A stretch of DNA of 64,000 nucleotides, from IMG/VR virus record IMGVR_UViG_2645727901_000008; one strand, given 5' to 3'. The DNA is from a virus. Lineage: Duplodnaviria; Heunggongvirae; Uroviricota; Caudoviricetes. Below the pieces are notes generated by a model that saw only the letters and a list, made by a program, of their open reading frames with translations, was not told the DNA's origin and did no database searches. A program made the position numbers and the translations under genes. Positions 22,374 through 59,589 of the stretch are shown one piece after another; positions within the stretch are counted from its first letter, which is position 1, and each line of letters opens with the position of its first letter.

Positions 22374-23021
22374 ATGGACATGATTATCCTGGTAGCAAGT
22401 CAAAAGGGAGGCTGTGGCAAGTCAACCACCAGCGTCAATATTTGTGCCGAGCTGGCCCGAAAAAACAAAGATGTCGTCTTGATTGATGCTGATAAGCAGG
22501 GAACGGCAGCTCGATGGGCGTCAGACCGTAATTCGTCCGAAGTGACACCAGTTATTCATTGCGTCCAGAAGTTTGGAAATATTCGAGAAACTCTGCTCGA
22601 TCTTAACAATCGATATGAATACGTGGTTGTTGATACCGCAGGTCGTGATAGTAAAGAGATGCGCACAGGTATAACGGCGGCGGATATTCTATTGGTTCCA
22701 TTCAGGCCGTCTCAGCCAGATTTGGACACGCTGGCACACTTTGTTGAGGTGTTTGAAGAGGCTTTGGATCTGATGCCTAATCCCAATATTAAGGCGTGCG
22801 CAGTCTTAACTATGGCCCCGTCAAATCCGGTTGTGAATGAAGCAAATGAGGCCAAAGAGTATCTGGCAGAATATCCGCAACTGAAATTGCTGAAAACCAT
22901 TATTCGCGATCGCAAGGTTTACCGCGACTGCATGGCTGAAGGAAAGGGTGTTGTTGAGATGGATAACGGTAAGGCGAAAGGTGAAATTCAGATGTTAGTT
23001 AAGGAGTTGCTAAGTGATTAA
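22374..23021 (+). CDS. parA: ParA-family partition ATPase (small, type Ib-like)
   Basis: Deviant Walker A KGGCGKST near the N-terminus; 215 aa. Confidence 0.85.
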   Translation: MDMIILVASQKGGCGKSTTSVNICAELARKNKDVVLIDADKQGTAARWASDRNSSEVTPVIHCVQKFGNIRETLLDLNNRYEYVVVDTAGRDSKEMRTGITAADILLVPFRPSQPDLDTLAHFVEVFEEALDLMPNPNIKACAVLTMAPSNPVVNEANEAKEYLAEYPQLKLLKTIIRDRKVYRDCMAEGKGVVEMDNGKAKGEIQMLVKELLSD

Positions 23022-23298
23022 ACGTCGAGAACCAGCTAAAGCGCCTAAGGCTACTGATCCGGAACTTGAGCGAAGAATTGAAGAGTTCGCCAGCAAAGCG
23101 GATTTAATCCCGGATGAAATTACAACGGGGAAGGTGCTTGATAAAGATGCGCCGCGCGACTTTAAATCCATACGCGTGAGCTTTAATGAATATGAGTACG
23201 GGGTGCTCGATGCGTTAAGCAAAAAGCTTAACCGCAGCAAATTGAACCTGATTCGACATGCCATCCTCATGCTTGCTGAGTCAGAGGATGCTAAATGA
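23014..23298 (+). CDS. Small DNA-binding partition partner (ParG/RHH-like)
   Basis: 94-aa ORF overlapping parA stop; basic N-terminus and RHH-like C-terminus. Confidence 0.55.
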   Translation: MIKRREPAKAPKATDPELERRIEEFASKADLIPDEITTGKVLDKDAPRDFKSIRVSFNEYEYGVLDALSKKLNRSKLNLIRHAILMLAESEDAK

Positions 23299-23418
23299 TA
23301 CCGATTTGATGCCTTATTGGCGTCTATCGTGTACCAGTGCAATAATGTGTCAAAGTGGTGCCATAATGGTGTTAATATACAGCCATATTGATATCAAATT
23401 GACACTGTATCGGCATCA

Positions 23419-23442
23419 AAAAGCCCCAGGCGGGGCTTTTTC
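23419..23442 (+). terminator. Rho-independent terminator (gccccaggcggggc + TTTTT)
   Basis: Hairpin flanked by A-tract and T-tract after the parA operon. Confidence 0.7.
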
Positions 23443-24350
23443 TATTTGAGCGTTGCAATGATATCGTTAGCGACTATTCGCGTGGATGCTTTGCATGACA
23501 CGGACCGTCTGGCTGGCATGTGGTACAGCTTAAAACCGTTTCTTTCGTACAATTCGCGAATTTTTGGCGCGCCACTGTTTGTTATTACTATCTTTGCACC
23601 GCGCTGGTGGGCCGCCACCAACAGTGATACAAGCCGTTTTTGTTCATCGAAAAGGAAGCTATTTCCTGAATAGCTGGTAAATCCCTCTGTATCTGGCAGC
23701 GGCTCATACGGCGGGTCACAAAAAATCACATCGTCTTTACCAGCCGCCTCGATGACACCAGCAAAGTCACCTGATACAAAGGAAGTGTTTTTGAGTACGT
23801 CATCAGCCAAAAATGCCTTCATCTCTGCATGTGGGAAGTAGGGCGCTTTGTATTTGCCATACCCCACGTTGAACTCGCCATTTTGGTTGTACCGCGTTAC
23901 GCCATTAAAACAGTGACGATTAAGGTACAAAAATGCGGCAGCATGATGTAGTTGGTCATACTTTCCTCTGTTAAATGCCTCACGCACTTCGAGGTAAGCG
24001 TCAGCGTTGTTGTAATTTTTGAAAAAACTATATGACAGCGTGACGAGCGAATGTCCTTCTCGCTGCAATGTCTGATAGAAGTTAATCAGGTCACCGTTAA
24101 TATCATTAAGCAGGTTGTGGCGAAATCCTGCATTCGTAAATACGGAACCGCCACCAACGAATGGTTCTATTAACCGCTTACCGTGTGGTAGATGCTCAAG
24201 CACTGTAGGCAATTCTGAGAATTTACCACCTACCCATTTGAATATCGGACGCTCATATTCATCCGGAGTCCGAATGGTGCGCATATAGCTAATTTCAGCC
24301 ATCGTATCCTGTTTTTCTATGGCTATGCTTGCTATAGATTTACTCATAGA
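23442..24350 (-). CDS. dam: Dam-like N6-adenine DNA methyltransferase
   Basis: FKWVGGK and DPPY motifs; likely start MSKSIASIA near 24350 (track ORF 23442..24443 overlaps the upstream MTase). Confidence 0.8.
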   Translation of the reverse strand, partial: SMSKSIASIAIEKQDTMAEISYMRTIRTPDEYERPIFKWVGGKFSELPTVLEHLPHGKRLIEPFVGGGSVFTNAGFRHNLLNDINGDLINFYQTLQREGHSLVTLSYSFFKNYNNADAYLEVREAFNRGKYDQLHHAAAFLYLNRHCFNGVTRYNQNGEFNVGYGKYKAPYFPHAEMKAFLADDVLKNTSFVSGDFAGVIEAAGKDDVIFCDPPYEPLPDTEGFTSYSGNSFLFDEQKRLVSLLVAAHQRGAKIVITNSGAPKIRELYERNGFKLYHMPARRSVSCKASTRIVANDIIATLK

Positions 24351-25018
24351 GCACCCCCTTATTCGCTTCGAAAACTGCCTTTGCGAATCCATGTGGAGTA
24401 GCACTTCGAAAATTAGCCCTGTCAGGCCCTGGTGGCGCGGCATGGATTCTGTTATCTGGCTTGCCTAATGATTCGTCCATTAGGGCATCAGGCATGACAA
24501 AGCCCTGGCCGCTCCAGAGGCATGTTTTTTTTGTGTAGTTATCTTCCTGACAATATGCAGTGAAGAAGTAAGGGTGAAAGATGTGATCTGGCTTACGCCA
24601 GAATGTCGATATTTTGCTGACCGGATTTTCAATCATGTACGGACAACCGATCATCTTTGCAATGTCATAACACTGCCAGACAACCTGCATTGCTTTGAAC
24701 TGGAAAACCGGATCTTTATTAGCCTTGTCCGAAAACCAGCGCGCGCCGGAAACAGCCAGGTCAGTACACGGTGGGAACCCGGCCAGAAACACGATGCGCT
24801 GCAAATTCTTACGGAGAAAAGCGTATACTTCATCGCTATCGATGATCGCACTAATACGCGTCAGAACGGCACCTGATTGCATCCGCTCGTCACTGGTCGA
24901 TAAGTGCTGTGGATCGACGATAGCGGCATCGACACCGTATTCCAGCCAGGGGGCAACCATTGCCCCCGTAAAATCACAAAGACTCACAACAAGCTGTCGG
25001 TTATTATCGTTCTGCTTC
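24340..25018 (-). CDS. dcm: C5-cytosine DNA methyltransferase (Dcm-like)
   Basis: Motif I ([16 protein letters not shown]), PC motif (FPPCTDLA), ENP motif (MIENP); probable GTG start near 25018. Confidence 0.7.
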
Positions 25019-25909
25019 ACCGCCAATGGCCTCCACCAGCGCGTTAAACAGTGCAGATAATTCGCCCGTAAAGAGCACGAAATCAGCATCAAATCGTTGT
25101 GCTACATCCTCCCGGTCGATATCGTCGTTCTGGTCATAGAGATCATCACAGAATGTCAGGGCTTTGATACTCATATCATCGTTGACTCTGAACGACGCAC
25201 GGTCCATCCAGTTAATTGCAACGGTCGTAGCTACTTTCCCCGCCTCAATGTGAGACATAATCTCGTCGGACTGTAGATCAACTTTGTTGCAGCGAACGGC
25301 ACCACCATTATCGAGCAGACCCTTTAATGTGGCGTCTTCACCTGCTGTAAATCCGGCAGGGAAGCCGCTTTTAAACCACTCGGTCATTGTAATTTCCAGC
25401 GGTTCGCGTGGTGTGAATGGAATGACAGGCAGGCTGCCGAGCGACTTTCGCAATAAAGCCAGCTGGTCCTCTGCCTTTTTGGCGCTGCTTGCCTCAACGA
25501 ATACCAGATGGTTGCTGCGGTCGATCAGGATTTTGGCGAGTGATTTTCTCGTGAACGCGCGAGGCAAAAGTGAATGCAGGACTTCATCTTTAAGACTGTC
25601 TCTTTCCGTTTTCTTCAGCTTGCGGGCTTGCTCTTCTTCGAGTTTCAGGACTTTTTTCTGCAACTCTTCCTTGAGCACCTGCGAGGGGAGAATTTTTTCT
25701 TCTCGCTTATGCTGTATTAGCAGAAAACCCTGGTATTCATGGGTGAGGTTGTCACCAAGAACAGGTGTCCAACCGACTTTAGCTGTGTCCTGAGAACCGC
25801 AAGGAGTAAACACGAATTTGCTAAGAGCATCGGATACTTCTGCGGCACTCCAGTTAACTTCACGTGAAAGACGATAGATGAAGATGTTTTTGAAAGCGAC
25901 TGATCTCAT
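25004..25909 (-). CDS. rdgC: Recombination-associated protein RdgC
   Basis: Conserved blocks shared with E. coli RdgC ([45 protein letters not shown]...GGEA). Confidence 0.9.
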
Positions 25910-58225: not shown

Positions 58226-59589
58226 TAATCATCCTCCGGCGGTTCTATCGCGATATCATCATCTCCGGCGTCATACCCTGCATCAGATACATCATAATCA
58301 CCGTAAATTTCAGCCGTTGCCGAAGGGTCAATATCCAGCTCTTCGTCGTTGGCCTCGAATTCTCCAGCTTTACGCTCGCCATTGCGGTCGTAATCTCCGC
58401 ACCCCAATTCTTCAACAATGGTTGCCACATCCGCCCGGCGCTCTGCCAGCCATTGCGGATGGTTAGCCTGAAGCGTTGCAAACTCCCTTGCCTCTTTGTC
58501 CAGCTGTTCATCATCAACATCATTGACGTCAGAAACAGGTGGTTCGAGAAGAGTGATAGCTTTCGCCGCGCGCGCCGCGAGGATAGCCGGGACGCTGACC
58601 CCCTGGCGCTCGATGTATTCAGCAACACCGATATCATCCAGTTCCTCGCGCTCACGCATACGTATAGCGGCGGCGATAACTCTGGCTGCGCGTGCGTCAG
58701 CGCCAATGCGATATTCAATCTCTTTGCCACGCTGTTCGGCCTGTAGGCGTGCTAATTCGAGTTTTTCTCTGGCCTCAGCCTCTTTGAATGCTTGCTGGCG
58801 AGCGCTCTGACGAAGCTTTTCATCCCCCTGTCGCAGCTTTTGTTCGGACTGATATATAGCTGCCAACCTACTGATAAAATCATTCATGTAGTAGGCCGCG
58901 TCACTGATTAGACCGAGAAGACGCTGCCCAGGGTGCATTCCTTCTGGCTCTTTATCGCCCAAGGCGTCTATTTCCGCCTGTAGGCGTTCGGCCTCCTGAT
59001 CAACAATGCTTTGATACTGAAGTGCGCGCTCTTGCGCCATTTGAATTGCTAACCGCAGGTGTTCTTCTGCGCCGTTCTTCATCATATCGCGAGCCACATT
59101 CGTAGTGGGCAATGTGGCACGCTGCACAGCACCGTCAGGGATCATTGCAGAAGATCCCTCAATTTTTGGGGCGCTTTTATCTTCTTCGGGGATCATTTTC
59201 GCCATTTTTTCGCGCAATGATCTCCTGACAGATTCTTTTATCTCATTGTTATTATTTGCATTATTTTCATGATCCGAAGTTTTCTTTCTCGGCATACTTC
59301 GGAAAGAACCTGCGCCCTGCGAATTGTCAATTTCTGTAAATTTTGTTTTTTCTGCACCCTCTTCCAGCTTTTTTGTTGCTCTTCCCGCCCGTTTTTTTTC
59401 AGGTGATTTGGTGCTTTTTTTTGTTGTCTTTACCTGCGACCGCACCTCATTTTTTTTCATATTGAGATGCTTTCTGGCTGTATTGAAGCTAAGGCCATGC
59501 TCCTCACAGTATTCCTTTACAGTGATCCCTTTTTCTTCACGCAACGCTATAAAGCGGGCGCGGTGCTCCTCCCAATTAACCAGACTCAT
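58225..59589 (-). CDS. pacA: Terminase small/pac-recognition subunit (PacA-like)
   Basis: 454 aa, N-terminal HTH-like region, charged coiled-coil middle, acidic C-terminus; contains a GATC cluster. Confidence 0.7.
   Translation of the reverse strand: MSLVNWEEHRARFIALREEKGITVKEYCEEHGLSFNTARKHLNMKKNEVRSQVKTTKKSTKSPEKKRAGRATKKLEEGAEKTKFTEIDNSQGAGSFRSMPRKKTSDHENNANNNNEIKESVRRSLREKMAKMIPEEDKSAPKIEGSSAMIPDGAVQRATLPTTNVARDMMKNGAEEHLRLAIQMAQERALQYQSIVDQEAERLQAEIDALGDKEPEGMHPGQRLLGLISDAAYYMNDFISRLAAIYQSEQKLRQGDEKLRQSARQQAFKEAEAREKLELARLQAEQRGKEIEYRIGADARAARVIAAAIRMREREELDDIGVAEYIERQGVSVPAILAARAAKAITLLEPPVSDVNDVDDEQLDKEAREFATLQANHPQWLAERRADVATIVEELGCGDYDRNGERKAGEFEANDEELDIDPSATAEIYGDYDVSDAGYDAGDDDIAIEPPEDD
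59139..59275. other. Candidate pac site: cluster of five GATC-containing hexamers inside pacA
   Basis: GATC at 59140, 59153, 59191, 59219, 59271 within about 135 bp; P1 pac is a Dam-methylated hexamer cluster inside pacA. Confidence 0.35.

Follow-up and report, generated by a model that had tools for sequence, protein, structure and literature searches.

Two probably separate and translationally coupled genes for DNA methyltransferases in a D6-like phage-plasmid

This study analyzed two overlapping methyltransferase-like reading frames in a 64,000-nt stretch of phage DNA (the window, at its full length). Both reading frames exist and lie in different frames, as the original prediction had proposed; they are on the minus strand and follow an rdgC gene. 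This rdgC gene is the first of an rdgC-orfX-dam string, and it shares its last 17 nt with the beginning of orfX. The genes of the string and their signals are as follows.

25004..25909, minus strand: rdgC, a homolog of P1 hrdC (PF04381 RdgC, E=5e-103; D6 orf65, 'similar to P1 hrdC')
25030..25034, minus strand: GGAGG, Shine-Dalgarno sequence of orfX, 9 nt upstream of the GTG, read from the sequence (GCTGGTGGAGGCCATTGGCGGTG)
24340..25020, minus strand: orfX, encoding a 226-aa C5-cytosine-methyltransferase-like protein of PHROG 757, with a GTG start and a TAA stop
24354..24360, minus strand: AAGGGGG, Shine-Dalgarno sequence of dam, within the 3' end of orfX and 6 nt upstream of the ATG
24340..24347, minus strand: the junction ATGAGTAA, with the dam start codon at 24347-24345 and the orfX stop codon at 24342-24340, in translational-coupling geometry
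23442..24347, minus strand: dam, encoding a 301-aa D12-class N6-adenine DNA methyltransferase (PF02086, TIGR00571), with the ATG start at 24347
23418..23441, minus strand: an intrinsic-terminator-like hairpin (AAAAAGCCCC-GCCU-GGGGCUUUUU) that has a U run and lies immediately downstream of the dam stop codon

The orfX frame extends from stop to stop over 24340..25092, and its supported start is the GTG at 25020. The original prediction had placed the start of orfX at 25018, which was off by 2 nt, and the start of dam at 24350, which was off by 3 nt. The hairpin after dam has a fold of -18.1 kcal/mol (z=-3.1) and was not listed by the consensus scan; it is symmetric and could also terminate convergent plus-strand genes. 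The promoter scan returned one weak promoter-like site only, located upstream of rdgC, and such sites were fewer than expected by chance. The P1 C1 operator (ATTGCTCTAATAAATTT) had no match with three or fewer mismatches within the window. A P1-like pac cluster of GATC was not convincing within the window, where at most 5 GATC were found in 200 nt (around 59140); pac may sit outside the window.

The window shared 96.7% identity with Escherichia phage D6 and 99.9% with the E. coli plasmid NZ_AP027678; by these identities, it is a D6-like phage-plasmid. Coverage of the query reached 80% or more in approximately 98 plasmids of PLSDB and in 89 of the 5426 complete E. coli genomes. Phage D6 (MF356679) already has an annotation for this gene pair, and the overlap has a standard coupling geometry. 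In D6, orf64 (681 nt) is annotated as 'putative DNA-cytosine methylase' and orf63 (906 nt) as 'site-specific DNA-adenine methylase; similar to C-term half of P1 dmt only'. D6 shares with the window the rdgC-orf64-orf63 order, the protein lengths of 226 and 301 aa, and the 8-nt ATGAGTAA overlap, and the proteins are 99% (orfX) and 95% (Dam) identical. By contrast, D6 carries glnS after dam, whereas the window has no glnS at that position. The dS between the window and D6 was 0.26 for dam and 0.007 for orfX. Because dam is thus more diverged from D6 than orfX is, a recombination breakpoint near the junction is indicated.

The downstream gene had been predicted to be Dam-like, and the profile searches confirmed this. 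The Dam protein matched PF02086 with E=1.5e-55 (189 bits, cut-off 22) over profile positions 1-252 of 253 and TIGR00571 with 248 bits (cut-off 114.85) over positions 2-265 of 267. It contains the following motifs.

24222-24239, minus strand: KWVGGK
24144-24161, minus strand: FVGGGS, SAM-binding motif of the FxGxG type, residues 63-68
23706-23717, minus strand: DPPY, catalytic motif, residues 211-214

By these profile and motif matches, the assignment of Dam as a complete D12-class adenine methylase is solid. P1 dmt has been described as conferring GATC methylation (PMC12707154; also the annotation of the P1 record), and the 67% identity of Dam to the Dam part of P1 Dmt suggests that it most likely methylates GATC as well. 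Dam also has an N-terminal extension of approximately 30 aa. In alignments with fused Dmt proteins, these first ~30 residues of the stand-alone protein match the linker between the two domains, which is no more than a hint that this lineage of Dam may once have been part of a fusion.

The upstream gene was more difficult to classify. Pfam and NCBIfam yielded no match for orfX, and PF00145 matched neither orfX nor any of 38 aligned homologs at E<=10. PHROG 757 ('DNA methyltransferase'), in contrast, matched the protein at full length (E=3.9e-78, residues 2-224). With this full-length match, a size within ~210-250 aa, and a stand-alone gene, orfX fits the membership of PHROG 757. Its relatives were found in 1591 phage records and formed 2603 clusters at 50% identity, nearly all of 200-250 aa. 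The alignment of 38 sequences revealed invariant LCDxTG, DPQH, FPPC, ENP, Y-x-K-x-T-x-x-W, and R-S-x-T-P motifs, which are located in orfX as follows.

24964-24981, minus strand: LCDFTG
24904-24915, minus strand: DPQH
24766-24777, minus strand: FPPC, with the catalytic Cys85
24622-24630, minus strand: ENP
24523-24534, minus strand: TKKT
24394-24408, minus strand: RSATP

Residues C85, E131, and N132 were invariant in 38/38 sequences, as were K164 and the acidic residues of the SAM site. The protein has the Pro-Cys of motif IV (FPPC) and a motif VI, with ENP in place of Glu-Asn-Val. The arginines of motif VIII (QxRxR) are absent, and Y-T-K-K-T, with the invariant K164, is found instead.

The AlphaFold2 model of orfX was confident, with a pLDDT of 86.7 and a pTM of 0.86. 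A Foldseek search with this model returned the catalytic domain of DNMT3A/3B as the top matches, with a small margin over generic Rossmann proteins, and the predicted fold was closest to C5-methyltransferases. Sequence searches of solved structures, with both the orfX protein and its profile, returned chance matches only. The identity of orfX to the DNMT3A/DNMT3B catalytic domain and to the bacterial type II C5 methyltransferases M.HhaI and prophage 3g7u is only 10-16%. Even the smallest of these proteins exceeds orfX by 60-100 residues, and orfX has almost no target-recognition domain and is not detected by PF00145, unlike canonical C5 methyltransferases. The target-recognition segment of orfX is very short. 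By its sequence, orfX is not a canonical Dcm.

A homolog of orfX has been tested. In a preprint on retron Ec86 (bioRxiv 10.1101/2023.08.16.553469), a 'Dcm-like' gene of 711 bp from phage K42 (Drexlerviridae) was reported to give 5mC by LC-MS, and the inactive mutant C82A/E128A/K175A/K176A was chosen by superposition on DNMT3A. In a 711-bp Warwickvirus homolog that is ~37% identical to the orfX of the window, the mutated positions fall exactly in the FPPC Cys, the IENP Glu, and both Lys of FKKTCLW. The K42 residues C82, E128, K175, and K176 correspond to C85, E131, K164, and K165 of orfX. The K42/KarlJaspers-type enzyme further resembles orfX in its assignment to PHROG 757, its small size (236 aa), and its FPPC, ENP, and KKTCLW motifs, and both folds resemble DNMT3A. 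Because the family has a tested member in this ~37%-identical homolog, 'mini C5-cytosine methyltransferase' is a fair name for orfX, and PHROG 757 and the predicted fold agree with it. The C5-cytosine methyltransferase label of the original prediction therefore stands in this form; Pfam and NCBIfam lend it no support, and it does not extend to a canonical Dcm.

The Drexlerviridae enzymes also differ from orfX. They carry an insertion of ~14 residues before the KK motif, which orfX lacks, and their segment from KKTCLW to RSxTP is not the same as that of orfX, suggesting that the specificity of orfX may be different. Because the target-recognition region is not that of the tested Drexlerviridae enzyme, CCWGG cannot be assumed for orfX. 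From its motifs and its homolog, orfX most likely produces 5-methylcytosine at some short site. The homologs in other phages, including those of Drexlerviridae, stand alone near helicase/replication genes and not beside a Dam, whereas orfX is paired with a Dam.

We then compared the junction of orfX and dam with those of its relatives. The overlap between orfX and dam spans exactly 8 nt (ATGAGTAA, 24340-24347, minus strand). The dam frame is +1 relative to that of orfX; the TAA stop and the frame change separate the two genes, and the single reading frame that holds both modules in P1 is not found here. An overlap of 10-100 nt had been predicted, and the value of 100 nt arises because the dam frame contains no stop over the 32 codons that precede its ATG, an open stretch that extends the mechanical ORF to 23442..24443. 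The peptide of this stretch was not conserved between lineages, whereas the orfX frame was conserved there, and a stop closes the stretch in contig L010; we therefore rejected the stretch as coding sequence.

For this comparison, the junctions of D6, of four plasmid loci with a DNA identity of 74-97%, and of 23 viral contigs from IMG/VR were read. The results revealed two ORFs in D6, in 4/4 plasmid loci, and in 23/23 contigs. The 8-nt overlap was present in 22 of the 23 contigs, and the sole exception, L009, is a more distant relative with a 19-nt overlap. The relatives read are thus uniformly two genes, all but one with the 8-nt overlap, an outcome that the original prediction had associated with an ordinary operon. 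The same geometry is common to D6, L004, L006, and L010-L031, and most of the relatives have ATGAGTAA preceded by AAGGGGG. The junction reads GTGGCTGA in L003, L019, L020, L022, and L023, where it is preceded by AAGGAGG; in this divergent lineage (L003 and L019-L023), AAGGAGG replaces AAGGGGG at the same position. In the lineage with 74% DNA identity, the start codon, the stop codon, and the Shine-Dalgarno sequence all differ in sequence, whereas the 8-nt overlap and the spacing are identical. For orfX, the dN/dS was 0.06-0.09, and dam had a value of about 0.1 (overall range to 0.11), similar to that of rdgC; orfX and dam are both under purifying selection. Because the same geometry was kept while the sequence of the junction changed, these findings support separate genes. 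We consider it probable, at roughly 85%, that this D6-like phage-plasmid carries two ordinary, separate methyltransferase genes that are translationally coupled. The original prediction had offered a frameshifted fusion, a programmed frameshift, and two genuinely separate coupled genes, and only the last is left, with two genes in all D6-like relatives read.

The original prediction was also correct about the arrangement in P1. P1 Dmt is one bifunctional protein of 754 aa, with an N-terminal PF00145 domain and a C-terminal PF02086 domain. Its gene directly follows hrdC, which is the same genomic slot after an RdgC-family gene as in the window, and its cytosine module precedes the Dam module, as in the orfX-dam order. 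P1 Dmt and the orfX/Dam pair presumably do the same job. The cytosine module of P1 Dmt, in contrast to orfX, is a canonical PF00145 domain of ~470 aa with GTPCQ, ENV, QRRRR, and GNS motifs; PF00145 matched P1 Dmt at 1.6e-35 and the L005 fusion at 2.2e-36. Comparing orfX with the C5 domain of P1 Dmt yielded E>2 in BLASTP and a probability of 0.3% in hhalign with a shallow profile (Neff 2.1). On this evidence, the two cytosine modules are different and non-orthologous.

The P1-type fusion was also found in D6-like plasmids. Approximately 13 of those in PLSDB carry it, and the two-gene form, with ~98 plasmids, is the majority. CP057059.1, for example, is D6-like on both flanks and has a 762-aa PF00145 + PF02086 fusion at the locus. 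On either side of the slot, the fusion-carrying plasmids share 98% identity with D6, and the replaced segment extends from codon 6 of orfX to approximately codon 25 of dam. The C5 segment that came in shares 98% identity with that of some P1-like plasmids. We read this pattern as a recent cassette exchange between two phage-plasmid families.

A third arrangement was identified in P0121, a 563-aa in-frame orfX::Dam fusion protein; it is encoded on a single 2-kb metagenomic contig with no informative neighbors and is therefore given little weight. The Dam lineage of the P1/D6 type may have been joined to a cytosine module in at least three ways, namely to a canonical C5 domain by fusion (P1), to a mini-Dcm by fusion (P0121), and to a mini-Dcm by coupling (D6-like elements), and the fused and the coupled solution would still be swapped through recombination at a single locus. 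The mini-Dcm and Dam might accordingly be regarded as the two subunits of a split bifunctional methyltransferase and not as two independent orphan enzymes, although we consider this unlikely. If it were true, the two activities may need a fixed proportion or a physical complex, and the mini enzyme might borrow DNA binding from Dam.

Another possibility is that orfX is not an active cytosine methyltransferase but a different or regulatory protein with a DNMT fold, such as a partner subunit of Dam or an enzyme that adds another group. The missing Pfam and NCBIfam matches are consistent with such a protein, as are a motif I of LCDFTG and not FxGxG, the lysines in place of the motif VIII arginines, and the recurrent link to Dam, through coupling here and fusion in P0121. 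Against these observations stand the invariant catalytic Cys, ENP Glu, and SAM-site acidic residues, as well as the homolog with the same motifs, which makes 5mC and loses its effect when those residues are mutated. Most members of the family, moreover, stand alone and not beside a Dam. In one homolog, an intein is inserted exactly at FPPC|T, and inteins are typically located in functionally critical sites. An inactive or regulatory orfX is, on balance, improbable, and the reading of orfX as a mini C5-cytosine methyltransferase is retained.

A programmed +1 frameshift would produce some orfX-Dam fusion protein, mimicking P1 Dmt, by slippage close to the 3' end of orfX, at the run of G residues in AAG GGG GUG. 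A G5 run does precede the orfX stop by 8-12 nt, no stop interrupts the dam frame over the 32 codons upstream of the ATG, and the natural in-frame fusion of P0121 shows that such a protein is viable, although P0121 is known from its single contig. The G5 run is missing, however, in the 74%-identical lineage with the GTGGCTGA junction (AAGGAGGGAATC; L003 and L019-L023), and L010 has only G4, followed by a dam-frame TGA two codons before the ATG, at which a shifted ribosome would stop. The lack of conservation of the upstream dam-frame peptide, set against the conserved orfX frame, also speaks against this explanation. Neither a stop nor a rare codon follows the putative slip site, and the G run is located at the ideal Shine-Dalgarno spacing (6 nt). 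A conserved slippery sequence with trans-frame coding was not found among the relatives read, and we regard the frameshift as very improbable.

Equally improbable is a decayed dmt of the P1 type, frameshifted or truncated, in which dam is a pseudogene fragment. This view is implicit in RefSeq, where PGAP tags the dam of the 99.9%-identical plasmid as a pseudogene ('incomplete; partial in the middle of a contig; missing N-terminus'). The alignment of the first ~30 residues of Dam with the linker of fused Dmt proteins and the fused forms at the same slot in P1 and in ~13 D6-like plasmids agree with it. Dam nevertheless spans nearly the whole of TIGR00571 (2-265/267) and keeps FVGGGS and DPPY, and the gene has its own ATG and Shine-Dalgarno sequence, whose position is conserved across lineages, and a dN/dS of ~0.1. 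The upstream orfX is intact and under selection, shows no detectable resemblance in sequence to the cytosine domain of P1 Dmt, and belongs to a different family of much smaller proteins; the two-gene form, in addition, outnumbers the fused form (~98 versus ~13 plasmids). A sequencing error at the junction is implausible, because at least 80% of the query is found in each of ~98 plasmid records and 89 E. coli genomes.

On the reading of separate, coupled genes, rdgC, orfX, and dam would be translated as separate proteins from one minus-strand string. The 17-nt and 8-nt overlaps place each start codon and its Shine-Dalgarno sequence inside the end of the preceding gene, and because of this placement, ribosomes that end one gene could start the next. 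It is from this geometry alone that we infer actual translational coupling of orfX and dam. Dam would add m6A at GATC, and orfX would add 5mC at a short site. Both would act as orphan methylases that pre-modify the phage or plasmid DNA against host restriction, and Dam may, by analogy with P1, also serve GATC-dependent steps such as packaging. P1 would accomplish the same task through one polypeptide, composed of an unrelated canonical C5 domain and a related Dam, and a minority of D6-like plasmids appear to have swapped in the P1-type cassette by recombination.

These findings add little new biology, and their value lies mainly in annotation, with modest specialist interest in the side observations. 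The RefSeq pseudogene call for dam, which presumably arose because the protein was compared with longer fused Dmt proteins, is wrong, as it is contradicted by the completeness, the start signals, and the selection of the gene. In the same RefSeq record, orfX is started at Met21 and shortened to 206 aa, and the invariant LCDxTG motif (the SAM loop) and the first beta-strand of the model are therefore removed. Both errors will mislead counts of methyltransferases or of 'pseudogenes' on D6-like plasmids. In addition, the locus neatly illustrates how P1-like and D6-like phage-plasmids exchange modules, and orfX belongs to a large family of mini C5 methyltransferases, with ~2600 clusters at 50% identity, that is still invisible to Pfam.

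We compared the coding sequences of the rdgC-orfX-dam region (window 23442-25909) with their counterparts in related phage-plasmids. The synonymous divergence (dS) between the window and phage D6 (L001) was 0.007 for orfX, 0.26 for dam, and 0.24 for rdgC, and that between the window and L006, a related plasmid locus, was 0 for rdgC and 0.22 for dam. Judged by these comparisons, the region is mosaic, with recombination breakpoints located at or near gene junctions.

The similarity between the window and D6 starts only at window 23453. D6 and many of its relatives carry glnS, which encodes glutaminyl-tRNA synthetase, between a parA-like/orf61 gene pair and dam (L001 2280-3941), whereas this gene is absent from the window (about 23300-23450) and from the nearly identical plasmid NZ_AP027678. 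In the window, two genes converge on dam:

within 22374-23298, plus strand, ParA-type ATPase of 215 aa, with matches to AAA_31, MipZ, and CbiA
within 22374-23298, plus strand, small ORF of 94 aa, overlapping the ParA-type ATPase gene by 8 nt

A symmetric hairpin at 23418-23441 could serve as a terminator for both directions. Across the whole window, GATC sites were densest at 59140-59275, with 5 sites in approximately 130 nt.

At the orfX-dam locus (window 23442-25020; 1543-3061 in L007, NZ_AP027678.1), dam is intact, yet RefSeq/PGAP labels it a pseudogene ("incomplete; missing N-terminus"), and because of this call no Dam appears in the PLSDB gene tables for NZ_ records. In the same NZ_AP027678.1 interval, RefSeq/PGAP starts the cytosine methylase gene at Met21, giving a product of 206 aa from which the invariant LCDxTG motif is lost.

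The rdgC-orfX-dam order was also observed in a contig that is more distant from the window, L009 (3084-5553 of IMGVR_UViG_2906128962_000004), which at approximately 90 kb has the size of a phage-plasmid. The orfX product of L009 is 254 aa long and has approximately 28 additional residues inserted where target recognition putatively takes place. The N-terminal extension is missing from the L009 Dam, and orfX and dam overlap by 19 nt. Among other orfX homologues, P0220, a 548-aa protein obtained in the representative search, contains an intein (Hint and LAGLIDADG) that splits the catalytic motif precisely between FPPC and T. In two others, the mini C5-methyltransferase domain is naturally fused to a second domain, which is an HNH endonuclease domain in P0176 (348 aa) and a D12 Dam in P0121 (563 aa; L008 218-1909, a single 2-kb contig).

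In approximately 13 D6-like plasmids, orfX and the first 25 dam codons are replaced by a C5::Dam fusion gene of the P1 type, with a product of 762 aa (L005, CP057059.1, 3009-5297, versus window 24272-25005). The replacement segment was 98% identical to P1-like plasmids, and this identity of the incoming segment points to recent recombination between the P1-like and D6-like phage-plasmid families.
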